In this document: one piece after another, positions 2 through 25,794 of the stretch
How the letters are laid out: each line of letters starts with the position of its first letter
How positions within the stretch are numbered: position 1 is the stretch's first letter
Translations under genes and position numbers: made by a program
Assembly (NCBI GenBank): GCA_964517975.1
Contig: CAZFDM010000190.1
Location: 1-55,012 of the forward strand
Length of the DNA: 55,012 bases
Source of the DNA: an uncultured Syntrophaceae bacterium
Lineage (GTDB): Bacteria; Desulfobacterota; BSN033; UBA1163
Reading direction: 5' to 3'
The notes under the pieces: generated by a model
Told to the model about the DNA's origin: nothing
Databases searched by the model: none
The model's input: only the letters and a program-made list of their open reading frames with translations

Positions 2-898
2 TGGTCTAAGAAACTTTACTGGGAAAGATACTTTCAACCTCAGACGATCAGCGAAGCACTCGCCATCTTAGAAGAGTTCCAAGGACAGGCCCATATCATT
101 GCAGGGGGGACAGATCTTATTCCCCAACTTAGAAAAAGGGAATTGGAACTGAAGGCCTTGGTGGACATTACCCGCATTCCTGGTTTGGATGAGATTAAAT
201 TGGAAGATGGTCTTATCAGGATTGGAGCTCTGGTTACCCATACTCAAATCGCAAAGTCATCCCTCATAAGAGAGAAGGCCACCGCATTGAGTGAGGGAGC
301 TTCGCAGGTTGGGTCTCCCCAAATCAGAAACTTGGGGACAGTAGTGGGTAATATTGTAAGTGGTCAACCTGGGGCTGATACAGCAATCCCTCTACTTTCG
401 TTAGGTGCGGTGGTTAAGGTGGTCAGTAAGGGAGGGGAGAGGAAGATTCCTTTAACTGAATTCTTTATCGATACAGGGAAAACCGTGATCCATAGTAATC
501 AAGAGATGGTCACAGAAATCTCCTTTCCTGCATTGAAAGAGGAAGAAGCCAGTGCCTCTCTTAGGTTAGCTAGGAGGAAGGCCTTGGCGCTTCCCGTTTT
601 GACAACCTCCGTGGTGATTTCTGCAGATTTGAAGAAGGAGATTTTTAATTATGCAAGAATTGCTATTGGTCCTGTTGCTCCCACCCCATTCCGAGCCAAA
701 GAAGCAGAAAAGTTCCTAATTTCTGCACCGATTAAGGAAGAGGTGATCAGGGAGGCTGCACAGAGAGCGGTTCAGGAGTCGAACCCCAGGTCAAGCCTTT
801 TAAGAGGGAGTGAGGAGTATCGGAAGACGATGGTAGGGGTCTTTGTAGAAAGAGGGATTCGGAAGGCATTAGAACGTTTGGAGGCAAGACATGGCTAA
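2..898 (+). CDS. Molybdenum hydroxylase (xanthine dehydrogenase/CO dehydrogenase family) FAD-binding medium subunit, 5' end cut by window edge
   Basis: The frame is open from base 2. The upstream translation WSKKLYWERYFQPQTISEALAILEEFQGQAHIIAGGTDLIPQL carries the AGGTDL FAD-subunit signature. The gene overlaps the next subunit gene by 8 nt. Confidence 0.85.
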   Translation, partial: WSKKLYWERYFQPQTISEALAILEEFQGQAHIIAGGTDLIPQLRKRELELKALVDITRIPGLDEIKLEDGLIRIGALVTHTQIAKSSLIREKATALSEGASQVGSPQIRNLGTVVGNIVSGQPGADTAIPLLSLGAVVKVVSKGGERKIPLTEFFIDTGKTVIHSNQEMVTEISFPALKEEEASASLRLARRKALALPVLTTSVVISADLKKEIFNYARIAIGPVAPTPFRAKEAEKFLISAPIKEEVIREAAQRAVQESNPRSSLLRGSEEYRKTMVGVFVERGIRKALERLEARHG

Positions 899-1373
899 AA
901 GAAAGATTCAGATTGAGGTGAATGGTGAAGGTGTGACCTTAGAAGTAGAACCGGATGACCTTTTGGTTGACGTCCTTAGAAGAGATTTAAAACTGACGGG
1001 GACAAAAGTGGGTTGTAGAGAAGGGGAATGTGGAGTTTGTTCCGTCATCCTTAATGGAAAGGTCGTCCCCTCATGTTTGATCCCCGTGATGAAAGCAGAT
1101 GGAGGAAAGGTCACCACGATTGAAGGGCTTGGGAAAAATGGAGACCTTCATCCTATTCAGAAGGCGTTTGTTGAAAAAGGAGCCGTTCAATGTGGGTTCT
1201 GTACGCCAGGGATGATTCTATCGGCCAAGAATCTTTTAGATGAAAAACCAAACCCTACTATCGAGGAGATTAAGATCGCCATTTCAGGCGTTCTCTGTCG
1301 GTGTACAGGGTATCAAAAGATTATTCAGGCTATTCAATCAGCCAGTGAAATCATGAGAGGTAAAGAGGGTTAA
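891..1373 (+). CDS. Molybdenum hydroxylase [2Fe-2S] small subunit (CoxS/XdhC-iron-sulfur type)
   Basis: Motifs CREGECGVCSV and CGFCTPG...CRCTGY mark two 2Fe-2S sites. The protein is 160 aa and sits between the FAD and Mo subunit genes. Confidence 0.9.
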   Translation: MAKRKIQIEVNGEGVTLEVEPDDLLVDVLRRDLKLTGTKVGCREGECGVCSVILNGKVVPSCLIPVMKADGGKVTTIEGLGKNGDLHPIQKAFVEKGAVQCGFCTPGMILSAKNLLDEKPNPTIEEIKIAISGVLCRCTGYQKIIQAIQSASEIMRGKEG

Positions 1374-1375
1374 GA

Positions 1376-3754
1376 ATGGAAAAGGAAGAGAAGAAGAAAA
1401 AAGTAATGATTAAGGAGAAAGAGGTTTTAGAAATCCCCCCTGTGGTTGAGGAGTTAAGCGTCGTAGGGAAACCTGCCATCAGGGTAGATGCCTACGATAA
1501 GGTAATGGGAAAATTGGTTTTTGGGGCAGATCTGGAATGTCCGGGTGCCTTACATGGGAAGGTTTTACGAAGCCCCTATCCGCATGCCTTAATCAAAAAG
1601 ATTGATATCGAAAAGGCAAAATCGATCCCGGGGGTAAGGGCTGTTCTTACCGCAAAAGATGTTCCTGGGAGGAATGGATTTGGAGCCATTATCCCTGATC
1701 AACCCGTCATTTGCGGGGATAAAGTGAGATATGTTGGGGATGGGGTTGCCTTGGTTGCGGCTGATACTGAGGAGTTAGCGATTCAGGCTTTGGAAGCGAT
1801 TGAGGTGGAGTATGAACCTCTTCCAGCAGTTTTTTCGCCTGTTGAGGCCATGAGTCCGGATGCACCGAAGATCCATGAGAAAGGGAATCTCTTGACCACT
1901 GCTAAGATTCGGAAAGGGAATGTCGAGAAGGGCTTTGCGGAGGCAGATGTCATATTAGAGAGAACCTATAGCGTCCCTATCTTGGAACACGCCTATCTGG
2001 AACCTGATGTAGTTATTGCTATCCCCCATCCAGATGGAACGATTACCGTAAAGGGGCCTATGCAAGCCCCATTTACTGTCCGTCGAAACATTGCCCCAGT
2101 ATTAGGAATCCCGATCAACCGAGTTCAATGTGTTCAGACCCCAATTGGGGGAGGATTTGGAGGAAAGGAAGATTCTCCCATTGACATTGGTGCCCGTGCA
2201 GCGCTTTTAGCCTGGAAGACAGGTAGACCCGTGAGGATGGAGTATGATAGGGAGGAGATTACACTCTCTACAGCCAAACGTCACCCCATGATCATTAAGT
2301 GTAAAGTAGGGGCCAAAAAGGATGGAACCTTCGTTGCTTTTGAAGGAACCATTTATAACGAACAGGGAGCTTATGCCTCTCTTGGCCCTGTGATTCCTCC
2401 TGCAGGTGGAGTCCATGCCCATGCGGTGGTAATGCTTCCAGGTCCTTACGAAATCCCGAATGTGAAAGTGGATGGCTATCTTGTCTATACCAACCATCCT
2501 TATGGAGGAGCGATGAGAGGGTTTGGGGCACCCCAGGTCAATTTTGCTCACGAATCTTTGGTGGATGAACTGGCTGAGGCTCTTAAAATGGATCCTTACC
2601 AACTTAGATATAAAAATGCTTTTCGTCTCGGGTCACAAACAGCCACTGGACAGATTCTTGATCAAAGCGTGGGGTTAAGGGATACGATGGAAAAGACGAG
2701 GGAGATATTTAAATGGGATGAAAAGTGGAGACCCAACCCTACTCCCAAAGAATTAGAGGGGTTAGAGAAAAGGAGAGGGGTTGGAATGGCAGTGGGATGG
2801 TATCGAACCAGTATTGGAATCTCCTCTGATGGCTGTGGGGTAAATCTTCATCTTCTGGAAGATGGTTCGGTTCTACTTTATCAGGGACTCACGGAAATGG
2901 GACAGGGACAATTTACCTCTCTCTCCCAAATTACTGCGGAAGCCCTTGGCGTTAAGTTGGAAGATGTAAGGGTAGTGACACCAGACACGGATATTGCTCC
3001 TGAATCTGGACCCACTGTGGGATCTAGATCAACCACCCTCATGGGAAATGCCATCTTGCAGGCTGCAGAGATGATTAAAAAGCCATTGCTTGAATCTGCT
3101 TCAGAACTCTTAGGGGTTCCCGCTGATAGACTTGTTGCTAAGAACCGCATCATCTATGATCGAGAAAATCCAAGTCACTCTATTGAACTGAAAGAGGCTG
3201 CCCGAAGGTCGATGGCCACAGGAAGGAGGATGATGGGACAGGGCTGGTATACCCCTCCAAAATCTTCCCTGGATTTGGAAACAGGCCAAGGCTCTCCTTA
3301 CTTTGTCTATACCTATTGTACCCAGATGGCAGAAGTAGAGGTGGATGTGAGGACAGGGGAAGTAGAGGTGATTAAAATCGTAGCGACCTTTGATATTGGG
3401 AAAGCAATCAATCCCATTATGTTGGAAGGCCAGATTGAGGGTGGGATCATGATGGGTCTGGGATATGCACTTATGGAAGAGGTAGTGATGAAGGATGGAT
3501 TCATACAGAACCTTGGGCTTCAAGATTATCTCATTCCAACGGCTTTAGATGCTCCCGAAATTGTTCCCATTTATATTGAATATCACCCGAATATCCATGG
3601 GCCATTTGGTGCAAAAGGGATTGGAGAAATGCCCAATATCCCTGCACCCCCTGCAATCACCAATGCCATTGCTAATGCAGTAGGAGCAAGGATTCGGGAT
3701 CTTCCTGCTCATTCAGAGAAGGTCTTTCAGGCCATGAGGGAGAGAAGGAAATAG
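1376..3754 (+). CDS. Molybdenum hydroxylase molybdopterin-binding large subunit
   Basis: The 792-aa protein carries the GGGFGGK signature (PIGGGFGGKE) and C-terminal GAKGIGEMP. It starts 2 nt after the FeS subunit stop. Confidence 0.9.
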   Translation: MEKEEKKKKVMIKEKEVLEIPPVVEELSVVGKPAIRVDAYDKVMGKLVFGADLECPGALHGKVLRSPYPHALIKKIDIEKAKSIPGVRAVLTAKDVPGRNGFGAIIPDQPVICGDKVRYVGDGVALVAADTEELAIQALEAIEVEYEPLPAVFSPVEAMSPDAPKIHEKGNLLTTAKIRKGNVEKGFAEADVILERTYSVPILEHAYLEPDVVIAIPHPDGTITVKGPMQAPFTVRRNIAPVLGIPINRVQCVQTPIGGGFGGKEDSPIDIGARAALLAWKTGRPVRMEYDREEITLSTAKRHPMIIKCKVGAKKDGTFVAFEGTIYNEQGAYASLGPVIPPAGGVHAHAVVMLPGPYEIPNVKVDGYLVYTNHPYGGAMRGFGAPQVNFAHESLVDELAEALKMDPYQLRYKNAFRLGSQTATGQILDQSVGLRDTMEKTREIFKWDEKWRPNPTPKELEGLEKRRGVGMAVGWYRTSIGISSDGCGVNLHLLEDGSVLLYQGLTEMGQGQFTSLSQITAEALGVKLEDVRVVTPDTDIAPESGPTVGSRSTTLMGNAILQAAEMIKKPLLESASELLGVPADRLVAKNRIIYDRENPSHSIELKEAARRSMATGRRMMGQGWYTPPKSSLDLETGQGSPYFVYTYCTQMAEVEVDVRTGEVEVIKIVATFDIGKAINPIMLEGQIEGGIMMGLGYALMEEVVMKDGFIQNLGLQDYLIPTALDAPEIVPIYIEYHPNIHGPFGAKGIGEMPNIPAPPAITNAIANAVGARIRDLPAHSEKVFQAMRERRK

Positions 3755-3757: not shown

Positions 3758-4069
3758 ATGGCACTCATGGTGATCTTTCGAGTTGAGATCAGGGAGGGAA
3801 AGGAGGAGGAATATAGGAAGATCTCTGCCGAAGTCCTTGAGGTTGCAAAAGAGCAAGAAGGACTGATTTCCATGGAGAGGGCAAAGTCGATCTTAAAGGA
3901 GCGCACCTATGTCTCGATTAGTGAATGGGAGAGCCTGGAGGCGATTGAGAAGTGGGTGCAAAACCCAAAACATCAGGAGGCGATGCGAAGAGGAAGGGAA
4001 GACCTCTTTTCTTGGTATTCCGTAAAAAGGATGGTTGAACATAAGGGGGGAGAAAAGGGGATTTTGTAA
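3758..4069 (+). CDS. ABM (antibiotic biosynthesis monooxygenase-like) domain protein
   Basis: 103 aa with a ferredoxin-like ABM pattern (SISEWESLEAIEKWVQNPKHQEA). It starts 3 nt after the large subunit stop. Confidence 0.6.
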   Translation: MALMVIFRVEIREGKEEEYRKISAEVLEVAKEQEGLISMERAKSILKERTYVSISEWESLEAIEKWVQNPKHQEAMRRGREDLFSWYSVKRMVEHKGGEKGIL

Positions 4070-4153
4070 CAGAAAGGAGGTGGGAGAAAGGTTGGTGTTA
4101 AGGTTTTTTAATGAGATTAAAAATTCATACCCTATAAAAAGGAGGTGGCATTC

Positions 4154-5437
4154 ATGAGGACAAAGAAGATTTCCCGAAGGTCATTTTTGAAAAAGGCAGG
4201 GCTCCTTGGTGGAGCAGCCGTATTGGGAGGAGTTGGGTTTCCAAGGATTTCCATTGCACAGAAAGCCCCCATCAAGATTGGGTGTATCTTTCCGCTGACT
4301 GGCCCATTTTCAACCGAGGCCCATTACCAACAGGAGGCAGCCATCCTGGCCGTTGAAGAATATAATGCCAGAGGGGGTGTTTTGGGAAGGAAGATAGAAC
4401 TGGTCATAAGAGACGATAAACTCAAACCGGATGAAGCAGCCCGCAGAACAAAAGAGTTGATTGAAAAGGATAATGTAGACTTGATCTTTGGAGGTCTTGG
4501 TGCACACACCCAATTGGCCATTAACGAACAGGCGAAACTGGCCAAAAAGATTTTTATGTCGATCAGCCAGTCCAATGAGATCACCCAGTGGCCAGATGTG
4601 AGTCCCTATACCTTCCACGAGGCCATTAACCCCTATATGACGACTCATTCTTTTGGTCCATGGATTTTTAAGAATTTGGGAAAGAAATGGTTCTTTCTGA
4701 CTGCAGATTACTCTTTTGGCTGGCAGTTAACAGAAGGATTTAGAAAGATCGGGAAAGAGTTGGGAATCAAAGATGCAGGAGAGATCAAACATCCCTTAGG
4801 ATCCACGGACTATTTCCCCTACTTTCCAAAAATTCTTGCTGCAGAACCAGAGGTTCTCATCCTGGATAATTTTGGAAAAGATCAACTCAATTCTATTAAA
4901 CAAGCCCATGCCTTTGGACTGAAGAAGAAGATGAAACTGGTTAGTGCCATTGTTTTATTATCTGCCCGTGTTGGAGCAGGGGATGAAGCCTATGAAGGAG
5001 TTTATGGGGGTTCGACCTTCTGGTGGGAATTGGAGAAGCAATTACCTGCGGCAAAGAAATTTGTAACTGCCTACCAAAAACGTTGGGGTAAACCGCCCAC
5101 GGACTACGCAGGGTACTCTTATGGTGGAATGATGGAGTTAATTGGTGCCATCGAGGCTGCAGGGGCATTGGATATGAAGAAGATGATTCTCAAACTGGAA
5201 GGCCATGAATATAACCATTACAAAGGAAAACAGTGGTGGGTTCCCTGGAGCCACCAATCGATTCAGGATTTCTTTATTCTTCGCTCCAAAAGTGCTTCAG
5301 AGAAGAAGGGAGAATGGGATCTGTTTGAGGTAGTTGCCACAGAGAAGGCTCACGATAAGATGGATCGGACCTGGGAGGAGTTGGGTCTCAAGGCATCGGG
5401 TCTCAAGCCCAACGAACCGTTAAGTAAATTACTCTAA
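4154..5437 (+). CDS. ABC transporter periplasmic substrate-binding protein, Liv/branched-chain-amino-acid (type I PBP) family, twin-arginine-like signal
   Basis: N-terminus MRTKKISRRSFLKKAGLLGGAAVLGG, followed by a Leu/Ile/Val-binding-type fold. I chose the ATG at 4154, 7 nt after GGAGGT, over the GTG at 4145 that abuts the RBS. Confidence 0.85.
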   Translation: MRTKKISRRSFLKKAGLLGGAAVLGGVGFPRISIAQKAPIKIGCIFPLTGPFSTEAHYQQEAAILAVEEYNARGGVLGRKIELVIRDDKLKPDEAARRTKELIEKDNVDLIFGGLGAHTQLAINEQAKLAKKIFMSISQSNEITQWPDVSPYTFHEAINPYMTTHSFGPWIFKNLGKKWFFLTADYSFGWQLTEGFRKIGKELGIKDAGEIKHPLGSTDYFPYFPKILAAEPEVLILDNFGKDQLNSIKQAHAFGLKKKMKLVSAIVLLSARVGAGDEAYEGVYGGSTFWWELEKQLPAAKKFVTAYQKRWGKPPTDYAGYSYGGMMELIGAIEAAGALDMKKMILKLEGHEYNHYKGKQWWVPWSHQSIQDFFILRSKSASEKKGEWDLFEVVATEKAHDKMDRTWEELGLKASGLKPNEPLSKLL

Positions 5438-5444
5438 ATTTAAT

Positions 5445-5479
5445 AAAGGGGTTCATCCCATTGAGGGGTGAACCCCTTT
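5445..5479 (+). promoter_or_regulatory. Intercistronic stem-loop between binding-protein and permease genes
   Basis: AAAGGGGTTCA-(13 nt)-TGAACCCCTTT forms an 11-bp perfect stem directly upstream of the AGGAGA RBS of the next gene. No long T-run follows. Confidence 0.4.
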
Positions 5480-5490
5480 AGGAGAATGAA

Positions 5491-6375
5491 ATGTTTGAAA
5501 TACCTCTTTCTGCTTTAGGACTTCAAATTTTTATGGGGTTTACTTTGGGGATGATCTTTGTATTGCTTGCAGTAGGGCTCTCCCTTATCTTTGGGATGCT
5601 CACCGTAGTTAACTTTGCCCATGGGGCCTTCTATATGTGGGGTGCCTATGCTGCCTTGCTGGCTGTCGGTTATATAGGGAATTTTTGGGTCGCCCTGGTT
5701 ATCGTTCCCATTGTCATCGGTGGGATCGGAATGCTTTTGGAAAGGTTTGCAGTGAGAAGGCTCTATGGTCTAAATCCAGATTATCCATTGCTCCTTACCT
5801 TTGGTTTCTCACTGGTGATGATTGAGATTGTGAGGATTACCTGGGGAACAGCCGATCATCCTTTCAGCAGTCCACCTGCGTTACAAGAACCCATCAATTT
5901 GGGTATCTTTTTCTTTCCCTCTTATTGGCTCTTTGTCATCGTGGTGACCATAGTGGTTTTGCTACTGCTTTGGATCCTATTAAAAAAGACCAACATAGGT
6001 CTCATCATCCGTGCGGGGACGAGAGACAGTTTAATGGTCAGGGTTTGCGGGATTGACATTTCCAAAATATGGCTTCTTGTCTTTGGGATGGGAACAGGGA
6101 TAGCGGGTCTGGCGGGGATTCTGGCTGCTCCTATGAGAGGGGTCTATCCTGAAATGGGAATCTCCATGCTCGTTGAGTGTTTCGTGGTTGTGGTGGTGGG
6201 TGGAATGGGAAGTCTGGTTGGAGCGATTTATAGCGGGATCATTTTAGGGATTGTTGTGAGTTTTACTACCTTGATTTATCCTCCCATGGCAAACATCGTT
6301 ATCTTTCTCGTCATGGCCGTTATTTTGTTGATCAGACCCAGCGGCCTCTTCGGTGAAAAGGGACTCTTAGAATAG
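5491..6375 (+). CDS. ABC transporter permease, LivH type
   Basis: 294-aa polytopic membrane protein in a Liv-type operon context. Confidence 0.85.
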   Translation: MFEIPLSALGLQIFMGFTLGMIFVLLAVGLSLIFGMLTVVNFAHGAFYMWGAYAALLAVGYIGNFWVALVIVPIVIGGIGMLLERFAVRRLYGLNPDYPLLLTFGFSLVMIEIVRITWGTADHPFSSPPALQEPINLGIFFFPSYWLFVIVVTIVVLLLLWILLKKTNIGLIIRAGTRDSLMVRVCGIDISKIWLLVFGMGTGIAGLAGILAAPMRGVYPEMGISMLVECFVVVVVGGMGSLVGAIYSGIILGIVVSFTTLIYPPMANIVIFLVMAVILLIRPSGLFGEKGLLE

Positions 6376-6388
6376 AAGAAAGGAAAGA

Positions 6389-7369
6389 ATGGAGATGGAA
6401 AAGACATCCGTTGTAAAAAATATTTTAATCTGGGCATCCAATCATCCTCTGTGGATGATTATCATCTTTTTTCTCATCTTTCCTTTTATTATGCCCTATA
6501 AAGCCCTGGCCACACTCATTTTGATTAATGGATTATTTTCATTAGGGTTTAACATTCTCTATGGTTATACCGGACTTCTTAGTTTTGGTCACGCTGCCTA
6601 TTTTGGTTTGGGGGCCTATAGTGTCGGAATTCTTCTTTCACGTTTCCAGGCCTCTATCTGGACCGCACTGCTTTTCAGCCTTATTGTATCGGGTGTGGGT
6701 TCATTGATCATCGGGTTTTTTTGTTTGAGGCGAAGGGGAATCTATTTTGCCCTTTTAAACCTTGCCTTTGCTCAGATGCTTTATTTTATTGGATTTCAAT
6801 GGGTCTCGCTAACTGGAGGTGAAGTGGGACTCCGAAACATTCCAACCCCTCCTCTCCAACTCCTTGGCTTTTCAATCGATATCTATAGTCCCATAAGGTT
6901 TTATTATTTCACTTTCATCTTTGTAACCATTGCCCTCATCGTGCTCAAAAGAATATTGGATTCTCCTTTTGGAAGGGTATTGGAGGCGATACGTGAGAAT
7001 GAGAATCGAGCTCGAGCCATTGGGTATCATACAAATCAGGTGAAATGGCTTTCCTATATTATGTCCGGTGTCTTCTCGGGTTTAGCAGGAGGGCTTTATA
7101 CGCTCTATATGCATTTTGTTGGGATTGAATACCTTTATTGGACGACTTCCGGGATGGTCGTGATGATGACCTTATTAGGAGGAGCTGGGACATTTTTTGG
7201 ACCCTTTATCGGGGCAGGAGTTTATCTATACCTTGAAGATATTATCAGCATCTATACGAAACACTGGATGATCTTTGTTGGCTCAATCTTCTTCCTCTGT
7301 GTCTTGATGTTCCCAGAGGGGATTTGGGGGAGGGTCAAGAGCAGGATCGATCGCTTGAAAGTGTCCTAA
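6389..7369 (+). CDS. ABC transporter permease, LivM type
   Basis: 326-aa polytopic membrane protein that follows the LivH-type gene. Confidence 0.85.
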   Translation: MEMEKTSVVKNILIWASNHPLWMIIIFFLIFPFIMPYKALATLILINGLFSLGFNILYGYTGLLSFGHAAYFGLGAYSVGILLSRFQASIWTALLFSLIVSGVGSLIIGFFCLRRRGIYFALLNLAFAQMLYFIGFQWVSLTGGEVGLRNIPTPPLQLLGFSIDIYSPIRFYYFTFIFVTIALIVLKRILDSPFGRVLEAIRENENRARAIGYHTNQVKWLSYIMSGVFSGLAGGLYTLYMHFVGIEYLYWTTSGMVVMMTLLGGAGTFFGPFIGAGVYLYLEDIISIYTKHWMIFVGSIFFLCVLMFPEGIWGRVKSRIDRLKVS

Positions 7370-7386
7370 GTAAGGGAAGGTGAGAG

Positions 7387-8840: not shown

Positions 8841-9058
8841 TCCTGAAGAAGTCCAGGGTTTCCCTCCTCTTTATCCCTAAACGATTAGGACGGAAGGGGT
8901 CAATTTTAAACTGCAATTTTTAATGAAACATTCCTGAGGAAAGGGGGTGATTTTTAAGGTCATTATTTAAAGAATTGATAAGTGGTGATGTTTGGGTCTT
9001 AGGTTTTTCTTATTTATTAGAGGATAATTCAAAGTTTGATTTAAGAAAGGAGAAACTT

Positions 9059-10444: not shown

Positions 10445-10464
10445 TTTATTCTTCAGGTATGGGA

Positions 10465-10495: not shown

Positions 10496-10509
10496 AGTCC
10501 TCTTTTAAA

Positions 10510-14814: not shown

Positions 14815-14845
14815 ATTAATCGAGAACAGAAAGGAGGAATGAGGG

Positions 14846-15828: not shown

Positions 15829-15843
15829 GTATACAAGTATACA
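15828..15843. promoter_or_regulatory. Palindromic operator candidate (GntR-type)
   Basis: TGTATAC-AA-GTATACA has perfect 7-bp arms and fits the generic GntR GT-Nx-AC pattern. It overlaps the -10/start region of the promoter, with a further TTGTATATG half-site at 15819-15827. Confidence 0.5.
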
Positions 15844-15859
15844 AAAATATTTTTAGCAC

Positions 15860-16516: not shown

Positions 16517-16578
16517 AAATGTCCTTGGAGATATATCCATGAGAAGGAAATACAAAAAAGGTGAATAAGGAGAAGCAA

Positions 16579-16926: not shown

Positions 16927-16942
16927 CCAACAAGGAGGGGAT

Positions 16943-18787: not shown

Positions 18788-18801
18788 GAAAGGATATTTC
18801 T

Positions 18802-19083
18802 TTGAAGGTGAAAGTATTTACAGCAGGGGCCTTGACCAAAAGCCTGCCCAACGGTCAGGACATTATTGAAGGAGAGACGATAACGGTTCAAGGCCTGTTG
18901 GAGAGGTTGGTTACCAAGCATGGCCCCCTTATGGCCAAAGAGTTACTCCATCAAGGGAAGCTCAGGGAAGGATTAGTTCTGCTGGTAAATGGGATGAACG
19001 TCCTATCCCTTCCAGAGAAGTTTGATACTCTTTTAAAAGATGGGGATGAAGTGCTCATCGCTATTATTGTCGCAGGAGGTTAA
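18802..19083 (+). CDS. MoaD/ThiS-like ubiquitin-fold small protein
   Basis: About 93 aa ending in ...IAIIVAGG (C-terminal Gly-Gly). The start is uncertain: TTG 18802 or GTG 18808 downstream of AAAGGA, while the ORF is open from 18784. Confidence 0.6.
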   Translation: MKVKVFTAGALTKSLPNGQDIIEGETITVQGLLERLVTKHGPLMAKELLHQGKLREGLVLLVNGMNVLSLPEKFDTLLKDGDEVLIAIIVAGG

Positions 19084-19103
19084 GAGAGGGAGAGGAGGAA
19101 GGT

Positions 19104-19709
19104 ATGAGTAGGAGTATTGTAATCAATGCAGACCTTTGCACAGGTTGTCGCTCGTGTGAGTTGGCCTGTTCAGCGTCAAAAGAAGGGGAGTTTATCCCAG
19201 AGCGATCCCGCATTCACATTCTCAGCAATACATTGGAAGGATGGTCTCGACCAACCGTTTGTCTTCAATGTGAAGACCCCATGTGCATGGCGGTCTGTCC
19301 TGTTGAGGCAATTTCGAAGACGAAGACCCCTCAAGGGGACCATCTCATTAAGATTGACCGGGAGAAGTGCATCGGCTGTCATCGTTGTATGGTGGCCTGT
19401 CCGATTGGTGCCATTGATTTTTTCCCCAATTTAAAATCGATTAAGTGTGATTTATGTGGGGGAGATCCCCAATGCGTAAAATTCTGTTTTTATGATTGCC
19501 TCCATTTCATTGAACTTTCCGATGAAGAACAACGCCAACGTTTCAAAAAAATCTATACGTTATTTAATAAGGCTTCGGTAGAGATTTCTAAGCAAGAACT
19601 CTCCAACCGAAGAAAGAGTTTTTCCTTGGAGGCATCCAGAGTAACCCCTCCCCCTCCTCCTAAAGAAGAGGAGGTGATAGAGTTTCCTATAGGTCAAGAG
19701 AAAAAGTGA
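19104..19709 (+). CDS. 4Fe-4S polyferredoxin-like electron-transfer subunit
   Basis: Four Cys clusters: CTGCRSCELAC, CLQCEDPMCMAVCP, CIGCHRCMVACP and CDLCGGDPQCVKFC. The RBS is GAGGAGGAAGG. Confidence 0.85.
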   Translation: MSRSIVINADLCTGCRSCELACSASKEGEFIPERSRIHILSNTLEGWSRPTVCLQCEDPMCMAVCPVEAISKTKTPQGDHLIKIDREKCIGCHRCMVACPIGAIDFFPNLKSIKCDLCGGDPQCVKFCFYDCLHFIELSDEEQRQRFKKIYTLFNKASVEISKQELSNRRKSFSLEASRVTPPPPPKEEEVIEFPIGQEKK

Positions 19710-19716
19710 TCGATCA

Positions 19717-20709
19717 ATGAAAATTTTTGTGATAGATGGTCACCGCCATATTCTATGTTTGGAAGCCCAACGGATGGCCATCCGGTTGGATTCGACAAAG
19801 GCGACCGATTATTTAGATGGGGTTCATGAGGCCTCTGCAGAGATTAATTTAAAAAAAGCACCCCAATGGAATCGGAAGATGACAGACCCAGAAGAACATT
19901 TCGGGGATATGGTGACTTCTGGGATTGATGTTGGGGTCCTTTGGCCACCACCTGTGGGATTCTACTACTGGACAGAACCCTTGGCAGGTGCAGAGTTGGC
20001 TCGACTCATTAATGAAAATACTTCAAAGATGGTTTCAAAAAAACCTGAACATTTTTTAGGGTTAGCAACCGTCCCCCTTCAAGATAGCCTCTTGGCTATT
20101 CAAGAGCTTAATTATGCGATCAAAAAATTGAGACTTCAGGGTGTCGCCATTGCGTCTAATGTAAACGGCCAGGGCCTTGATGAAGAAATTTTTTTTCCTT
20201 TTTTTGAAGAAGTAGAGAAATCAAACTTACCCATTTTTATCCACCCTCATCATCCCCCAGGGGCCGAGAGGATGCGAAAATATTACCTCATTAATTTCTT
20301 AGGCTACCCCATGGAGTCCACCTTAGCAGCAACCCAACTCATATTTGGTGGAGTTTTGGATCGTTACCCTAATTTAAAGATCTGTCTTGCCCATGCGGGT
20401 GGTGTTTTACCTTTTCTCCTTGGTCGGCTCGAACATGGTCAATCCGTCCGACCCGAGGCTCAAAAAAGATGTCAACATCCGGTTTCTTATTATTTAAAGA
20501 ATTTTTATGTCGATAGCATTACTTTTCGTCCGGAGACCCTTCGTTTTGTTATAGAAACGATGCCAAGGGGACATGTCTTTATGGGAACGGATTACCCCTT
20601 TGATATGGGGGACCTTCAGGCAGTTCAATCGGTGAGGTCCGCCATAGCAGATGAGGACTTGCTGGAGGAAGTTCTTGGAGGGACACTAAAGAGAATCATG
20701 GGTTTTTAA
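19717..20709 (+). CDS. Amidohydrolase_2 family protein (ACMSD/LigW/PicC-like metal-dependent decarboxylase or hydrolase)
   Basis: N-terminal DGHRH (HxH), IHPHH, AHAGG and GTDYPFD blocks typical of the family. 330 aa. Confidence 0.8.
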   Translation: MKIFVIDGHRHILCLEAQRMAIRLDSTKATDYLDGVHEASAEINLKKAPQWNRKMTDPEEHFGDMVTSGIDVGVLWPPPVGFYYWTEPLAGAELARLINENTSKMVSKKPEHFLGLATVPLQDSLLAIQELNYAIKKLRLQGVAIASNVNGQGLDEEIFFPFFEEVEKSNLPIFIHPHHPPGAERMRKYYLINFLGYPMESTLAATQLIFGGVLDRYPNLKICLAHAGGVLPFLLGRLEHGQSVRPEAQKRCQHPVSYYLKNFYVDSITFRPETLRFVIETMPRGHVFMGTDYPFDMGDLQAVQSVRSAIADEDLLEEVLGGTLKRIMGF

Positions 20710-20769
20710 AAATGGTCTGGAATGGGAATCAAAAAATTAAAATTTTAATGGATATAAAGGAGGGTAACC

Positions 20770-21477
20770 ATGGATACTGTAAAAATTGTGGACCGATCTC
20801 AGATGGTTTCGACATTGAATCGAAACCTGGTGATCAATCCTTCCACCACAGCCATTGTGGCTATTGACATGCATCGAGGGCACTTAGACCCCTCGATTGC
20901 TACCATGCCCGTCGCTCCTGAGGACTGTAAAAGAGTCATTGCCTATTCTAAGAACCTTCTCGATTTTGCGAGGTCAAAAAAAATTCCTGTGATTCACGTC
21001 ATTCTTATTCAACGTAATATTCCAGGGTTTGGGGCAGAAGGCCTGAACCTCAAGTTTTGGAAAGCCCTTCACCAGATCGCAGAAGAGGAAAACCGTTTAA
21101 CACCAGGTAGAAAGAGCACGGCAGCCGATCACAACCTCGAAGGGTCACCAGGAACTCAGATCATTCCAGAACTTTTAGGTAAAGGGGACTATGTGATTAA
21201 TAACAAAAAGCGTCTGGATTGTTTCTATGGGACAGACCTTGAGATTCTTCTTCGTATTTTGAGAATCGAGACTACAGTGTTGATTGGTATAAATACTAAC
21301 ACCTGCGTTTTAAATACAGCGTTCACAGCCTGTAACCGAGATTTTCAGGTAATCGTCATTTCTGATTGTGTAGCAAGTATGTATGGAGAAGACCTCCATA
21401 TCCTTGGATTGGAGAATGTAAAGCGATGTTTAGGATATGTATTGACTGTTGAGGAGTTTAAAAAGAAGATCGATTAG
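20770..21477 (+). CDS. Isochorismatase-family cysteine hydrolase (nicotinamidase/maleamate amidohydrolase-like)
   Basis: Candidate Asp-Lys-Cys triad context: AIDMHRGH, NNKKRLD and GINTNTCV. Confidence 0.8.
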   Translation: MDTVKIVDRSQMVSTLNRNLVINPSTTAIVAIDMHRGHLDPSIATMPVAPEDCKRVIAYSKNLLDFARSKKIPVIHVILIQRNIPGFGAEGLNLKFWKALHQIAEEENRLTPGRKSTAADHNLEGSPGTQIIPELLGKGDYVINNKKRLDCFYGTDLEILLRILRIETTVLIGINTNTCVLNTAFTACNRDFQVIVISDCVASMYGEDLHILGLENVKRCLGYVLTVEEFKKKID

Positions 21478-21522
21478 AGAAGGTTCCAAAGAAGAACCCA
21501 ACGAGAGAACAGGAGGAAAGAA

Positions 21523-22743
21523 ATGCCAACAAAGAGGAGAAGTCAACAATGGGTTTTAGATGCCTTGGCCGGAACAGGTGGTTGGGACATCCTGCATCCT
21601 GGTATCCGAGGTATTTTTGAAGAGTTAGGATATTATCATGGCGATGTAGACAGAGTATTCGAAAAGGTTAAGGCAGCCTCTATGTATGCAAAGGCCTGGG
21701 CCACCACTGCCCAGGAGGTGGAGAAAAAGGCCCTCTTTGCAGAGAGGATGGGATGGAAGATGGCAGCACGTGATTTTTATGCCCGAGCCTGCCTCCTTTA
21801 TGGTCGTGCACGCTATAGTTACTATAAAGATGATCCCAGAAAGATGGCCTTTAATCAAAAGGTAATCCAGTGCTTTGAAAAAGTGATGGCACTTAACCCC
21901 ACCCCCATTGAGAGGGTTTCACTTGAATTTGAAGGGAAGAAGATCTATGCCAACTTGCATTTAAATGGATCAAAGGGGAAAAGTCCTACTATTGTCCTTG
22001 GCCCGGGCATGGACATGTTTAAAGAAGATTGGTACCGGGCAGTGGAGAGATACTTTTTGCCCCGAGGATTTGTGGCCCTGGCCATTGATGGGCCCGGTCA
22101 GGGAGAAAGCTTGGCTTTAGGTTGTAAGGTAACCGTTGATAATTATGAGCGAGCAGGGAAAACCTTTATCGACTATCTTTCACAGCGGCCTGAGGTTGAT
22201 CCAAACAGGATTGTCTGGTTTGGAGTCAGCATGGGGTCTTATTGGGGTGCCAGGGTAGCCGCCTATGACCATCGCCTGAAAGCCTGCGCAACGGCAATGG
22301 GGTGCAATGGCAGAAATATGGAGGTTATCTTTCATATGGCCCAGCCAAATTTTAAAGCCCATTTCATGTATATGGCAGGTTACGAGGATGAGGAGAAATT
22401 CGACAAGGAGATTATGGCGCACATGACCCTCACCCATGTTGTCAAAAAGATTGAATGCCCTTTCTTGATGATCCATGGTGAATTTGATGAACTCACACCC
22501 CTTGAAGAGGCAATCGAAACCTATGAGAATATTCCACCTCCTAAGGAGATTTGGGTGATGGATAATGAGTTCCATCCCATTGGACCAGTGGGAAGCGATT
22601 GGTTGAGTTGTGTTGGCGATTGGTTGCTCCAGATGTTGGAAGGAAAATTTGATAGTCAAATGGACCGTAGATTGTTCTGGAAGAAGACAGGGGAAGTGAT
22701 TGAAGGTCACATGAGGCCACCTTGGTGGTTACTAAAGGAGTAA
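21523..22743 (+). CDS. Alpha/beta-fold hydrolase with N-terminal helical domain (FrsA / 2,6-dihydroxypseudooxynicotine-hydrolase-like architecture)
   Basis: Nucleophile elbow GVSMGS, AIDGPGQGES block and 406 aa. Subfamily assignment is from memory of the architecture only. Confidence 0.7.
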   Translation: MPTKRRSQQWVLDALAGTGGWDILHPGIRGIFEELGYYHGDVDRVFEKVKAASMYAKAWATTAQEVEKKALFAERMGWKMAARDFYARACLLYGRARYSYYKDDPRKMAFNQKVIQCFEKVMALNPTPIERVSLEFEGKKIYANLHLNGSKGKSPTIVLGPGMDMFKEDWYRAVERYFLPRGFVALAIDGPGQGESLALGCKVTVDNYERAGKTFIDYLSQRPEVDPNRIVWFGVSMGSYWGARVAAYDHRLKACATAMGCNGRNMEVIFHMAQPNFKAHFMYMAGYEDEEKFDKEIMAHMTLTHVVKKIECPFLMIHGEFDELTPLEEAIETYENIPPPKEIWVMDNEFHPIGPVGSDWLSCVGDWLLQMLEGKFDSQMDRRLFWKKTGEVIEGHMRPPWWLLKE

Positions 22744-22773
22744 TTGAATAACGAAAGGAAGGAGTGAGGTGAG

Positions 22774-24087
22774 GTGGATCCTTTAACCGTAGGCATTTTG
22801 GGAGTCATTTTACTTCTTATCTTCATTATCCTTAGAGTCCCAATCTCTGTGGCCTTGGCCGGAATTGGGCTCTTTGGAGTTATCTATCTCCTCGGTTTTG
22901 ATCGTGCCATTTCTTACCTCCCTCACCAAATTTATTCCAGAACTGCTAAGTTTACTTTCACTGCCATCCCCCTCTTTCTCCTGATGGGATATTTTGCTTT
23001 TTACGCAGGGGTTACTGAAGGTGCTTATGAAACGGCCAGGGCATGGGTAGGAAGAGTACCTGGGGGATTGGGAATCGCTACCATTGGAGGGTGTGCCCTG
23101 TTTGCAGCCACGGCAGGCTCCAGCTTGGCGGAATGTGCAGCCATGTCAAAGATCGCTGTGCCAGAAATGCTTAAGAGTGGCTACAACAAAAAACTTGCCA
23201 TTGGCCTTGTAGCCTCTGCCGGAGGATTGGCGGTGGTTATCCCTCCAAGTATTATTATGATCATCTATGGAGTTCTAACGGAGCTGTCTGTCGGGCACCT
23301 GCTTGTTGCAGGCGTTTTACCCGGTATCCTTTATGCTGGAGTTTTTGCTATAGCTATTTTCCTTTATGCTTTATTCAAACCTTCTTCTGCTCCTCTGGAG
23401 TCAAAGGTTGACACTTCATGGAGAGTACGGATTAGGAGTTTAAAGAAGTTTTGGGAAGTCCTGTTATTATTTGGAGCCTCCATTGGAGGGATCTATGCAG
23501 GCTTGGTTACTCCAACTGAAGGGGCTGCTCTTGGCGCGGTGGCTGCTTTCGGCCTTGGAGTCTTTAAAAGGAAATTGACTAAAGAAGTGATCAAGGAGGC
23601 GGTCCTGGAGACGGTTAAGGCAAGCGCCATCATTTTTCTTCTTTTCTGTGGAGCATCGGTATTTACAATCTTTATTACGGTAACAGGCGTGATCCAGGCC
23701 TTTACCAATTGGCTCATCTCGCTAAACTTCTCACCTCTCCAACTCTTCTGGGCCCTCATGATCCTCTACATCATCCTGGGGTGTTTTCTTGATTCCATCT
23801 CTATGATGCTTCTAACCCTGCCTTTGGTCATGCCGATCATTGAAAACATGGGTCTGAGCCTGATCTGGTTCGGAGTGATCATGTGCATGATTGTTGAAAT
23901 TGGATGCATTACCCCACCGATGGGTTTAAATGTCTATGTCATGAAAGCGGCAATGGGAAAAGATGCAGAACTAACAGAAATTTTTGCAGGTGCCCTTCCA
24001 TTTGTCATCTTAGAAGTAATTGTGGTTGCCATTTTATATGCTTTTCCTCAAATAGCCCTATGGCTTCCAAGTTATATGGGGATGTAG
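22774..24087 (+). CDS. TRAP transporter large permease (DctM type)
   Basis: 437-aa polytopic membrane protein with a GTG start behind AAGGAGTGAGG, followed by Q- and P-type genes. Confidence 0.85.
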   Translation: MDPLTVGILGVILLLIFIILRVPISVALAGIGLFGVIYLLGFDRAISYLPHQIYSRTAKFTFTAIPLFLLMGYFAFYAGVTEGAYETARAWVGRVPGGLGIATIGGCALFAATAGSSLAECAAMSKIAVPEMLKSGYNKKLAIGLVASAGGLAVVIPPSIIMIIYGVLTELSVGHLLVAGVLPGILYAGVFAIAIFLYALFKPSSAPLESKVDTSWRVRIRSLKKFWEVLLLFGASIGGIYAGLVTPTEGAALGAVAAFGLGVFKRKLTKEVIKEAVLETVKASAIIFLLFCGASVFTIFITVTGVIQAFTNWLISLNFSPLQLFWALMILYIILGCFLDSISMMLLTLPLVMPIIENMGLSLIWFGVIMCMIVEIGCITPPMGLNVYVMKAAMGKDAELTEIFAGALPFVILEVIVVAILYAFPQIALWLPSYMGM

Positions 24088-24120
24088 CAGGAACCATAGG
24101 AGGATAAAAGGGGGTCAAGG

Positions 24121-24627
24121 ATGAAGAATTATTTCAACCATATCGTCGATTCCCTCTCTTCAAAGGTGACGGTTCTCTCTGGGATCTCTGTAATGGCGAT
24201 GATGACCGCAGAGTTTATCAATGCCATAGGCCGAGAATTTTATAAGCCCCTTCCATGTTGCTTGGAATTGTCTGAGTCTCTTATGATAACTTCCATTTTT
24301 ATGGCTGCAGCCTACGTTGGGTTAAAAGGGGAACACACAAATGTTACCATTATGACAAGAAGATTTCCTCCAAGGGTTCAAAGTTTCATCGATTCATTTG
24401 CCAGCCTATTTGGAGCAATTGTATTTGCCATTTTTGCCTATGGGGCCTGGAAAATTGCTTTTACCGCTACCCTTAAACTCGAGATGAGGATAGGGGTGTT
24501 TAGGTTTCCAATCTGGCCCTTTAGAATATTTTTTGCATTTGGGTTAACCCTGCTTTCCTTGCAGTTCTTCTCTAATATGATCAAGTGCCTTTTTCAAGCG
24601 ATGGATCGAGATTATAAACCCGAATGA
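24121..24627 (+). CDS. TRAP transporter small permease (DctQ type)
   Basis: 168 aa with four predicted TM segments, located between the DctM- and DctP-type genes. Confidence 0.7.
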   Translation: MKNYFNHIVDSLSSKVTVLSGISVMAMMTAEFINAIGREFYKPLPCCLELSESLMITSIFMAAAYVGLKGEHTNVTIMTRRFPPRVQSFIDSFASLFGAIVFAIFAYGAWKIAFTATLKLEMRIGVFRFPIWPFRIFFAFGLTLLSLQFFSNMIKCLFQAMDRDYKPE

Positions 24628-24705
24628 AAGGAGGTGGATTTTTTTGTTGAGAGAGGAGTAGGTTTTAAAAAATAAAAAAATAAAAAAATGAAAAGGAGGA
24701 TAAAA

Positions 24706-25794
24706 ATGATACCATCTAAAAAAGGAAGTTTTTTGGTCATCACGGTGTTGGTTCTTTCTCTAACCTTTATGTTCTGGTCGCCAAAGAGTTTTGCTCAGGG
24801 CAAAACATTTGCCTTCAAATTTGCAACTTCTGTGCCTGAAAAATCTTTTATGGGTGGCCTTCAAAAATGGTGGGCTAATGAGATCGAAAAGAGGACAAAC
24901 GGTCGTGTTAAAATTCAAATCTTCTGGATGGAATCTCTCATTGAGTGGAAAGATATGTATCATGGGGTAAAATCAGGGGTTGCTGAGATTGGGAATCCTT
25001 GCTCGACCTACGACCCAAGCATTTTCCCCCTCTTTATGGTCTTAGATATGCCTTATAATGTCAGGGATTATTGGGCAGGAAACATGGCAGCCATTGATAC
25101 CGCAGAAAACGAACCCCATCTAAAAGCAGAATTGGAAAAGGCGGGGATTAAATTTTTGGCCAATCATAATAGTGGGTTTTTCCAGATGGCTACGAGAAAA
25201 CCCTTCACTTCTATCAGTGAATTAAAGGGCAAGTCCTTCCGCACGTTTGGAGGGGCTCGAATTAAATGGATGGAAAATTTAGGTATCAACCCTATCTTTA
25301 TGAGTTATGGAGAGATTTATGAGGCCATGGATAGAGGAACAATCTTTGGCTTCGATCTTGTTTTTCAGCTCAGCGATGCCTTTAAACACTATGAAGTTTG
25401 CAAATATGTTGGATTGGCTAACTCAGGGCTTGTAGTTACCTGTCCCACATCGATGAATTTAAAAGTTTGGAACTCCCTACCTAAAGACATTCAGGATGTC
25501 TTTTTAAAGGTTAGAGAAGAGTATGCCGCTCGTTTTGCTGAGGAACTTTACAAATTAGAGAGTGGATTTATGGAAAAGTGGAAAACGAAATATGGGGTAA
25601 CGATTCAGAAACTATCTCCAGAGGAAGACAGGATTGCAAGAGAAGCGGGGAGAAAAGCCCAAGAGTGGTTTTTGGATAAGCAGGAAGCAGGTGGACACCC
25701 TGCCAGAAAGGTTTGGGATTATTTCCAAAAATCTCAAAGAAAATATGAGGAAGAGATTAAGACCAAAGGTTATCCCTGGGAAAGAAAGAGATAA
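24706..25794 (+). CDS. TRAP transporter substrate-binding protein (DctP type)
   Basis: Signal peptide (SFLVITVLVLSLTFMFWSPKSFAQG) plus a DctP-like body. I chose the ATG at 24706 behind AAAGGAGGA over the ATG at 24688. Confidence 0.8.
   Translation: MIPSKKGSFLVITVLVLSLTFMFWSPKSFAQGKTFAFKFATSVPEKSFMGGLQKWWANEIEKRTNGRVKIQIFWMESLIEWKDMYHGVKSGVAEIGNPCSTYDPSIFPLFMVLDMPYNVRDYWAGNMAAIDTAENEPHLKAELEKAGIKFLANHNSGFFQMATRKPFTSISELKGKSFRTFGGARIKWMENLGINPIFMSYGEIYEAMDRGTIFGFDLVFQLSDAFKHYEVCKYVGLANSGLVVTCPTSMNLKVWNSLPKDIQDVFLKVREEYAARFAEELYKLESGFMEKWKTKYGVTIQKLSPEEDRIAREAGRKAQEWFLDKQEAGGHPARKVWDYFQKSQRKYEEEIKTKGYPWERKR

Follow-up and report, generated by a model that had tools for sequence, protein, structure and literature searches.

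A 26-kb co-directional gene run in an uncultured Syntrophaceae bacterium as a probable mosaic of catabolic modules around a conserved AOR2-MoaD-polyferredoxin-ACMSD-type cassette

Background

We analyze a 55-kb contig (CAZFDM010000190.1; hereafter, the window) from an uncultured, Syntrophaceae-like member of the Thermodesulfobacteriota. Our subject is the run of genes at positions 2-25794 on the + strand, which encodes a three-subunit molybdenum (Mo) hydroxylase, a Liv-type ABC importer, an M24 hydrolase, two tungsten-type aldehyde:ferredoxin oxidoreductases (AOR1 and AOR2), and, in its last 10.5 kb, a block that opens with a GntR regulator, closes with a TRAP transporter and holds AOR2 together with a MoaD-like protein, a polyferredoxin and an amidohydrolase_2 protein (AH2) of the aminocarboxymuconate-semialdehyde decarboxylase (ACMSD) type. 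The original prediction for this DNA had been one co-directional 26-kb “supercluster” that might encode an anaerobic route for N-heteroaromatic acids. We lean instead toward a series of at least five transcription units on the leading strand, each assorting on its own among relatives, the 10.5-kb block being built around a conserved cassette. As a mosaic of catabolic modules the cluster is ordinary; its interest lies in the AOR2-MoaD-polyferredoxin-ACMSD-type cassette.

Results

By open reading frame (ORF) listing and translation, the run holds 26 coding sequences (CDS), all on the + strand as originally predicted, and the expected tight packing is borne out as well, with 20 of the 25 junctions overlapping or spanning 60 nt or less. 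Larger gaps measure 75 nt (4069/4145), 65 nt (10444/10510), 134 nt (8840/8975; about 218 nt if the M24 gene starts at 9059) and about 280-355 nt before gntR (15580/15860-15935). GC skew is positive over all 55 kb and just four genes in the whole window lie on the - strand (29.9-32.8 kb), so the same-strand order reflects replication-strand bias and is no evidence for a single operon. Pfam confirmed each family named in the original prediction and added a ThiS/MoaD-like ORF that had been overlooked (18784-19083, between AOR2 and the polyferredoxin); C-N-type hydrolases are plentiful. The genes are catabolic, and since no protein reached an equivalog cutoff in the NCBIfam search, the cluster matches no described pathway, as had been proposed. 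The NCBIfam models that passed were generic ones for subfamilies or domains, namely those for TRAP DctP, for a short-chain dehydrogenase/reductase (SDR) subfamily and for the Tat signal of LivK, and the 55 kb gave no Rfam match that could serve as a riboswitch or other RNA clue to a ligand, or any other Rfam match. Within the species-representative set, “Deltaproteobacteria bacterium SIF170217_bin_35” is the nearest genome, and relatives come from peat, fen and soil.

The expectation that failed was conservation of the neighborhood, which is not kept as a unit across relatives (given here by labels beginning with L). We distinguish, with the same leaning as for the mosaic as a whole, five units: the FAD-FeS-Mo hydroxylase with an ABM-domain protein; the Liv-type ABC importer; the M24 hydrolase; a group comprising an iron-type alcohol dehydrogenase (FeADH), AOR1, an SDR, a rubrerythrin-like protein (Rbr) and a cyclase-family protein; and the 10.5-kb GntR-controlled block. 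In the closest relative, L081 (78-98% amino-acid identity), the order ABM-LivKHMGF-M24-FeADH-AOR1-SDR-Rbr-cyclase is followed directly by a nicotinate phosphoribosyltransferase (NaPRT) gene and a radical SAM gene. In blastn, window 14815-15610 aligns with L081 12352-13144 and window 26080-28361 with L081 13506-15837, so that the 10.47 kb at 15611-26079 (+ strand), from GntR to DctP, correspond to about 360 bp. A metagenome contig, L184 (81-97% identity), carries the intact 11-gene block exactly between SDR and Rbr, and L181 (94-100% identity) has the same gene order as the window. The Rbr-cyclase pair thus stands upstream of the block in the window and downstream of it in L184. Taken together, the orders in L081, L184 and L181 mean that either the block or the Rbr-cyclase pair has moved among close relatives and that the block was deleted in one of them; with the blastn breakpoints and the junction alignment, they mark it as a discrete unit.

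Between the SDR and Rbr genes of L081 (11577-11743) lie three collinear, decayed dctP fragments (residues 36-60, 117-132 with an in-frame stop, and 354-368) and the dctP terminator hairpin. These relics sit at the block position of L184 and read as the footprint of a deleted GntR...DctP block, which argues for deletion or rearrangement rather than insertion. A mobile-element origin of the block was considered and set aside, as it contains neither an integrase nor a transposase and no notable repeats, direct or inverted, lie at its flanks.

The other units assort in a similar manner. Orthologues of the hydroxylase in L001-L007 (71-82% identity) have only the upstream Liv-type ABC system in common with the window, while the genes downstream differ from genome to genome (GntR-TRAP-FeADH-ALDH, where ALDH is aldehyde dehydrogenase; GlcD-like plus CCG; a xylose-isomerase-like barrel; LarA-like). 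The FeADH-AOR1-SDR triad is found by itself in L083-L094; over L083-L098, from Syntrophaceae and Desulfobacterales, it is in some cases accompanied by an ABC system and the cyclase. Two further observations concern the surroundings of the hydroxylase. In L004 (12393-19081), an 80%-identical orthologue is followed by a GntR/FCD regulator, a TRAP system, an Fe-ADH and an NAD-dependent ALDH, an alcohol-to-aldehyde-to-acid theme that resembles the FeADH-AOR1 pair of the window, but with ALDH in place of AOR. In the closest relative (L008, 1-8575), SDR (48%) and FeADH (46%) paralogues lie upstream of the hydroxylase genes, and the catabolic neighborhood probably extends past the left edge of the window.

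At the center of the block, the AOR2 gene (16943-18787) is followed by genes for the MoaD/ThiS-like protein (18784-19083), the polyferredoxin (19104-19709) and AH2 (19717-20709), all on the + strand. AOR1 and AOR2, only 35% identical to each other, both have full-length AFOR_N and AFOR_C domains, the EGPEYE motif and the cluster cysteines, and score 377-429 bits against solved AORs (377-393 for AOR2) versus just 196-210 against BamB. The small protein matches Pfam ThiS and NCBIfam moaD_arch and is a candidate AorD/AorE-like maturation factor for the tungsten cofactor; the polyferredoxin (Pfam Fer4) shows four cysteine motifs for [4Fe-4S] clusters and resembles the electron-transfer subunit AorA. 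AH2 reaches 185 bits against human ACMSD versus 84-91 against gamma-resorcylate decarboxylases. Across its subfamily, H9 and H11 are kept in 108 of 108 sequences, H176, H226, R237 and D292 in 118 of 118, and R53 in 113 of 118; R53 and R237 we take to be the equivalents of the substrate-binding arginines of ACMSD. The residue set agrees with the metal and catalytic set of ACMSD (HxH, His177, His228 and Asp294; 10.1101/457895), and AH2 is predicted to be an ACMSD-type decarboxylase.

Judged from sequence comparison, these four genes form the one deeply conserved orthologous unit of the 26 kb. Relatives of AH2 do not exceed 45% identity in the species-representative genomes or 43% on annotated plasmids. 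Metagenomes and metagenome-assembled genomes (MAGs) hold more than 120 clusters at 55-88%, and to many of these JGI gives the name “aminocarboxymuconate-semialdehyde decarboxylase”. The sources are peat, soil, sediment and subsurface metagenomes and include Syntrophaceae-like MAGs, Desulfatiglandales and Ca. Abyssobacteria. We sampled the gene context in 11 lineages (L258 and L340-L349) and found an AOR2-type AOR beside AH2, or within about 3 kb of it, in nine (L258, L340-L344, L346, L348 and L349); more distant versions of the cassette occur in L159, L208, L259 and L260. The set is free-standing as AOR-ThiS-polyferredoxin-AH2 in L341 and in L346 (Ca. Abyssobacteria), takes in a methyltransferase in L343 (AOR-ThiS-polyferredoxin-methyltransferase-AH2), and is flanked in L344 by Fer4 and MBL genes (Fer4-AOR-ThiS-sized ORF-polyferredoxin-AH2-MBL). 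Together with an isochorismatase-family gene (Isoc) and the TRAP genes it appears in L258 (AOR-MoaD-polyferredoxin-AH2-Isoc-DctMQP) and, with an alpha/beta hydrolase besides, in L340 (GntR-AOR-ThiS-polyferredoxin-AH2-Isoc-DctMQP-alpha/beta hydrolase-cupin). Other arrangements are AOR-ThiS-ZnADH-AH2-CMD-HIBADH-like-M24 (L342), AOR-cupin-cupin-AH2-CE4-Amidohydro_1-AOR (L348) and GntR-ABC-AOR-polyferredoxin-AH2-S15-cupin-M24-MBL (L349). In L347, AH2 follows two cupins and the AOR lies about 7 kb away; in L345, AH2 stands without an AOR among MoaA-like, methyltransferase and radical SAM genes.

The AORs that neighbor AH2 are 64-84% identical to AOR2, with a second group at 50-53%, and only 33-37% identical to AOR1, and where a homologue is 43% or less identical to AOR2, no AH2 gene lies in its vicinity. 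AOR2 and AH2 therefore move and evolve as a pair, and their pairing is apparently widespread and undescribed; our literature search on AOR operons with an amidohydrolase or decarboxylase found no description of one with an ACMSD-type partner. Genes for cupins, creatinase-like M24 proteins, GntR/FCD regulators and various hydrolases of amides or esters also recur around the cassette. For M24 and cupin, the window copies are only 31-32% and 27-34% identical, respectively, to those of L258 and L349, versus 83-84% between L258 and L349, so that the window copies are not orthologous and the association holds at family level only; we excluded both from the conserved unit.

Such tight linkage could also mean that AH2 is no pathway enzyme at all but serves this AOR subtype as a subunit or as an accessory or maturation factor, much as the MoaD-like gene would be. 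The coupling of AH2 to the polyferredoxin gene (a 7-nt gap in the window, an overlap in L346) and the free-standing four-gene operons with no shared catabolic neighbors would fit, as would L345, where AH2 adjoins a MoaA-like radical SAM gene. We nevertheless judge this very unlikely: all catalytic residues of ACMSD are invariant, the two substrate-binding arginines among them, AH2 lies several kb from the AOR or lacks one in L347 and L345, and we know of no amidohydrolase_2 protein in pterin-cofactor maturation. The L345 locus (7176-10996) is as follows: the AH2 orthologue (58% identity) comes directly after MoaA-like radical SAM, methyltransferase and second radical SAM genes, and ThiG, ThiH and ThiS genes lie upstream.

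Around the cassette, the block has putative transcription signals of its own. Just upstream of gntR, a stretch at 15800-15845 (+ strand) reads as a promoter-like TTGACA-N16/17-TATATG followed by two GTATAC palindromes like FadR/FCD-type operators, for which we infer a promoter and operator function. The GntR/FCD regulator gene (15860-16516, alternative start 15935; Pfam and the L178 gene call) and a 121-residue monocupin gene (16561-16926; Pfam Cupin_2) precede AOR2. Downstream of AH2, a gene at 20770-21477 encodes an isochorismatase-family cysteine amidohydrolase that keeps the context of the Asp-Lys-Cys triad, its nearest solved relatives being N-carbamoylsarcosine amidase, nicotinamidase and biuret hydrolase. 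Next comes a FrsA-like alpha/beta hydrolase (21523-22743) with a GxSxG motif; among solved proteins it comes nearest to C-C hydrolases, namely DHPON hydrolase (78 bits), followed by Ayg1 and AntI. On annotated plasmids, 48%-identical relatives occur on Bacillus megaplasmids, alone beside a MarR gene. The TRAP transporter genes dctM, dctQ and dctP (22774-25794, dctP being 24688-25794; DctP by Pfam, DctM and DctQ from L178 gene calls) end the coding part, and a hairpin with a 15-bp stem (25819-25855), similar to the one beside the dctP relic of L081, is the predicted 3' end of the block transcript. All these elements lie on the + strand.

The alpha/beta hydrolase bears on another reading of the AOR2-AH2 pair, namely that it deformylates hydroxy-aromatics derived from lignin or polyphenols, AOR turning the aldehyde into the acid and AH2 the acid into phenol plus CO2, with FeADH and SDR feeding in benzylic alcohols and the alpha/beta hydrolase cleaving acyl side chains. 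Many amidohydrolase_2 decarboxylases do use ortho-hydroxy-aromatic acids (LigW substrates, gamma-resorcylate, salicylate, 2,3-dihydroxybenzoate), and the best solved relatives of the alpha/beta hydrolase cut aryl-ketone C-C bonds. Alcohol dehydrogenases flank the cassette in L342, in L259/L260 and in the window, relatives come from peat, fen and soil, and the bacterial AOR oxidizes a broad range of aldehydes (PMC6365974). We still hold deformylation to be distinctly unlikely, as AH2 is clearly nearer to ACMSD than to the aromatic-acid decarboxylases, the ACMSD arginine pair is kept, and the recurring amidase-type neighbors (Isoc, CE4, Amidohydro_1/3, M24) would be left unexplained.

At the other end of the run, the hydroxylase genes stand in the FAD-FeS-Mo order (translation and Pfam) that the original prediction had likened to the ndh genes of Eubacterium barkeri. 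They encode an FAD-binding subunit of the XDH family (2-898, its 5' end cut by the window edge; FAD_binding_5 and CO_deh_flav_C), a small subunit with two [2Fe-2S] clusters and 8 cysteines (891-1373; Fer2 and Fer2_2), and an unsplit molybdopterin-binding large subunit of 792 residues (1376-3754; MoCoBD_1/2). The ABM-domain protein follows after 3 nt (3758-4069; Pfam ABM) and is found only in the closest relatives, being present in L013/L081 and not in L001-L007. Then comes the Liv-type importer (4145-8840), with a Tat-signal binding protein (Pfam Peripla_BP_6; Tat signal by NCBIfam), two permeases and two ATPases, LivHMGF having been assigned by homology and by gene calls on an identical contig; these genes too are on the + strand, and a Liv-type system lies beside all hydroxylase orthologues. 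The Tat-signal protein LivK (4145-5437) weakly matches urea-type UrtA binding proteins (91 bits), which suggests a small amide or ureido ligand and not a branched-chain amino acid.

Against solved relatives, the large subunit scores 373 bits with the alpha subunit of 4-hydroxybenzoyl-CoA reductase (4-HBCR) over the full length, 361 with NdhL of E. barkeri nicotinate dehydrogenase (NDH) over 418 residues and 219 with NdhM, with lower scores for CoxL/CutL (245-299) and quinoline oxidoreductase (216). Its identity to NdhL, 43-44%, is the highest among characterized sequences, and per residue NDH is clearly closest. In a neighbor-joining tree (402 columns, 100 bootstraps), the large subunit joins only its deltaproteobacterial orthologues (100% support; deeper nodes 22-25%); it is not sister to NdhL and stands apart from HcrA, E. 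coli XdhA/XdhD, bovine XDH and MOP. The firm clustering with 4-HBCR, CO dehydrogenase (CODH) or purine hydroxylases that the original prediction had singled out as telling against it does not appear. On these data the large subunit is best placed in an orphan clade with NdhL/NdhM as its nearest solved relatives and, at most, possible orthologues.

Three specific identities were considered and rejected. The FAD subunit contains no cysteine and hence no 4-HBCR-type [4Fe-4S] insertion, and HcrA is 36% identical and falls in another clade; the active-site loop AYxCSFR of Mo-Cu CODH is absent; and, compared with canonical XDH (bovine numbering), a His/Ala stretch stands opposite Arg880 and an Ile opposite Phe1009. 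Glu802, Arg912, Phe914 and Glu1261 of the bovine enzyme are kept. The NCBIfam models PucD (631, cutoff 784) and XdhA (574, cutoff 780) both fell short.

We think it somewhat probable that the hydroxylase is a separate module with its own ABC importer, most like nicotinate dehydrogenase; a link to the block, or to N-heterocycles, is possible but unproven. Outside the window's own lineage, a hydroxylase lies near the cassette in just one of the 11 sampled contexts, L258. There, in an uncultured deltaproteobacterium, an FAD-FeS-L-M hydroxylase with L and M proteins of 447 and 335 aa, in the ndhFSLM order of E. barkeri (5287-8983), is divergent to an AOR2-MoaD-polyferredoxin-AH2-Isoc-TRAP operon. 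A cupin gene and a Liv ABC system lie beyond the split hydroxylase, an M24 gene lies on the other side, and the block orthologues are 46-76% identical to those of the window. Mo-hydroxylases also adjoin AORs in L020 and L090.

These pairings would fit a reading of the whole 26 kb as one anaerobic N-heteroaromatic acid route, for nicotinate or picolinate for example, in which the hydroxylase would make a lactam, the hydrolases would open and deamidate the ring, AH2 would decarboxylate and the AORs would handle aldehydes. NDH as the nearest characterized relative of the large subunit, the FAD-FeS-Mo order and the abundant C-N hydrolases speak for it, as do L258, in which an NdhL/NdhM-like hydroxylase, Liv ABC, cupin and M24 are joined with block orthologues, and the AOR neighbors in L020 and L090. 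The hydroxylase half is, however, intact without the block in L081, hydroxylase orthologues are followed by unrelated genes, the cassette stands alone in L341, L343 and L346, the L258 hydroxylase is not orthologous to that of the window (44% identity, different clade), and the hairpin and promoter-like elements split the region. E. barkeri carries nicotinate fermentation on through 6-hydroxynicotinate reductase, enamidase, a B12 mutase and other enzymes, and Pfam found none of these families in the window.

The parallel drawn in the original prediction to the nic and pic pathways stands at the level of four Pfam families (Mo-hydroxylase, amidohydrolase_2, alpha/beta hydrolase and isochorismatase) and fails below it for the decarboxylase and the hydroxylase. 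PicC resembles gamma-resorcylate decarboxylase and has an N-terminal EEH metal motif (10.1101/457895); AH2 has H9-R-H11 in that place and so, with its ACMSD score, is not of the PicC type. PicA is about 40% similar to CO and caffeine dehydrogenases (10.1101/530550), and for the window enzyme CoxL/CutL score below NdhL and NdhM together and the CODH loop is missing, which makes it NDH/XDH-like and not PicA-like. The analogues of NicD/PicE and NicF/PicF match at family level, their best solved relatives being DHPON hydrolase, Ayg1 and FrsA in the first case and the amidases and biuret hydrolase named above in the second. The pic route also needs the O2-dependent monooxygenase PicB and dioxygenase PicD (10.1101/457895, 10.1101/530550). 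As predicted, Pfam shows no recognizable ring-hydroxylating oxygenase, with no PicB/NicC or PicD/NicX family among the 26 CDS, the nearest being only the 121-residue Cupin_2 protein and the ABM domain. What survives of the proposed N-heteroaromatic acid route is thus the NDH likeness, the C-N hydrolases and the L258 pairing, and what falls is the 26-kb unit and the nic/pic parallel below family level; as an account of the whole region we consider it unlikely.

Several points nonetheless weigh against the mosaic reading and the role we give the cassette. Modular inheritance is no proof of functional independence, since parts of a single pathway may disappear or relocate one at a time, and the L258 arrangement, in which block orthologues adjoin a Mo-hydroxylase, Liv ABC, cupin and M24, fits a larger functional unit, as does the recurrence of cupin and M24 families around the cassette. 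The L345 AH2, without an AOR and beside a MoaA-like gene, could hint at a cofactor-related role. The relatives compared are MAGs or metagenome contigs throughout, and no protein reached an NCBIfam equivalog cutoff that would name a substrate.

The middle of the run carries the remaining units, again on the + strand. The M24 gene (8975-10444, likely start 9059) encodes a creatinase/prolidase-like hydrolase (Pfam Peptidase_M24) that is also DddP-like by PDB and NCBIfam matches, and a terminator-like hairpin with a 12-bp stem (10465-10495) separates it from the FeADH-AOR1-SDR triad (10510-14340; Pfam Fe-ADH, AFOR_N/C and adh_short, with synteny in relatives). The Rbr and cyclase genes follow (14392-15580; Pfam and PDB); the first product is a 140-residue ferritin-like domain only, and the second, an isatin hydrolase/formamidase-like metal hydrolase, keeps the motif H-x-x-T-H-x-D-x-x-x-H and scores only 53 bits against isatin hydrolase. 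An SDR together with a cyclase-family protein (13567-15580) recalls phloroglucinol reductase (PGR) and dihydrophloroglucinol cyclohydrolase (DPGC), which belong to these same families (PMC10470551), in a pathway of anaerobic polyphenol degradation reported in sulfate reducers, and the metal motif would fit. That identity is extremely unlikely here and we rejected it: the best solved relatives of the SDR are generic KduD or gluconate-5-dehydrogenase types, with no PGR among the best 60 listed, the cyclase score is low, and Pfam found no TAL (BKACE) or TfD gene in the window.

Beyond 26 kb the genes are housekeeping (a NaPRT/QPRT-family gene, radical SAM, ParA/MinD-like, DprA, TopA, TrmFO and a type I restriction-modification system). 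The NaPRT gene just downstream, which the original prediction had mentioned, turns out to be a syntenic housekeeping neighbor, set off by the hairpin and a 306-nt spacer and held in place in relatives with and without the block. The gene for a ParA/MinD-like P-loop ATPase (28361-29278) is missing in L081, where window positions 28361 and 29480 are adjacent, and kept in L181 and L184, so that close relatives differ here by a second small indel. At 47000-52000, GC content drops to 0.36-0.41 versus about 0.45 elsewhere over genes for RadC and a type I restriction-modification methylase and specificity subunit, probably a horizontally acquired defense islet. From 52000 to 55012, GC skew climbs to 0.28-0.375 while AT skew reaches 0.19, and the ORFs at 52882-53529 and 53538-54635 have no Pfam match, nor has that stretch an Rfam match.

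Discussion

For the block, a working scheme can be put together from the predicted functions, in which substrate class, reaction order and regulation are all inferred. An organic acid would enter through TRAP and relieve GntR/FCD repression; the isochorismatase-type and alpha/beta hydrolases would act on amide or acyl groups, removing or opening them; AH2, as a metal-dependent enzyme of the ACMSD type, would take off a carboxyl group next to an enol or enamine; and AOR2 would oxidize the aldehyde of the same intermediate to the acid, passing electrons via the polyferredoxin to low-potential carriers that could drive H2 or formate production in a syntroph. Decarboxylation might precede or follow the AOR step, MoaD would serve maturation of the tungsten cofactor, and the Mo-hydroxylase may supply a hydroxylated N-heterocycle to this or to another route. 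Decarboxylation and aldehyde oxidation are both exergonic, and the reverse direction, carboxylation with acid reduction, is doubly unfavorable. The recurring amidase-type neighbors favor a nitrogen-containing substrate, with a hydroxy-aromatic aldehyde or acid as the alternative.

A more specific version, which we regard as quite improbable, makes the cassette the O2-independent counterpart of the step from ACMSD to 2-aminomuconate-semialdehyde dehydrogenase (AMSDH), within a hydrolytic, non-reductive anaerobic ring cleavage of pyridine carboxylates. An NDH-like Mo-hydroxylase and lactam or amide hydrolases would convert nicotinate via 6-hydroxynicotinate into a ring-opened enamine-carboxylate; ACMSD-type decarboxylation would then give glutaconate semialdehyde, which a tungsten AOR would oxidize to glutaconate for the glutaconyl/crotonyl-CoA metabolism typical of Syntrophaceae. 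If true, it would add to N-heterocycle degradation a third mode, one not yet described and widespread in anoxic soil and sediment; our literature search found nothing relevant on anaerobic nicotinate routes beyond E. barkeri.

The cassette would matter in a broader sense if the AOR2/ACMSD-type pair is a dedicated two-enzyme step, for it would then be a new and widespread anaerobic catabolic module that gives one tungsten AOR clade a physiological role and extends the ACMSD subfamily into strict anaerobes; to our knowledge, most bacterial AORs are without a defined pathway context. The region as a whole illustrates how a long co-directional run on the leading strand can pass for a “supercluster” though it is a mosaic whose modules were inherited independently.

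Comparison with known systems

The anaerobic phloroglucinol pathway encodes PGR, DPGC, TfD and TAL together (PMC10470551), of which the window offers just an SDR and a cyclase-family protein. With E. barkeri NdhFSLM, the hydroxylase shares the FAD-FeS-Mo order, and NdhL and NdhM are its best-scoring solved relatives per residue. It differs in that its large subunit is unsplit, whereas E. barkeri has two proteins for it, L of about 425 aa and M of about 330 aa, and in that the residue after GGFGGK is Glu in the window and Leu in NDH.

ACMSD works paired with the aldehyde-oxidizing AMSDH in the kynurenine and 2-nitrobenzoate pathways, and AH2 shares with it the HxH/H/H/D set, the conserved arginine pair and an aldehyde-oxidizing partner. 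That partner is an oxygen-sensitive tungsten AOR with ferredoxin in the window, not an NAD-dependent ALDH. Pfam found no 3-hydroxyanthranilate dioxygenase, and, the host lineage being strictly anaerobic, a semialdehyde-type substrate would need an O2-free origin.

Among AORs, AOR2 scores 268 bits against WOR5 of Pyrococcus furiosus and 321 bits against AorB of Aromatoleum aromaticum (8c0z), in whose operon AorA is a four-cluster ferredoxin and aorD and aorE are MoaD-like maturation genes (PMC6365974). The AorA-like ferredoxin and MoaD-like gene beside AOR2 make AOR2-MoaD-polyferredoxin a set like AorB, AorD and AorA without the FAD/NAD subunit AorC, which Pfam did not detect in the block, and its order is AOR-MoaD-ferredoxin. 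The window's cassette also differs from AorABC(DE) in its gene for an ACMSD-type decarboxylase, which in many lineages is its fixed fourth member.

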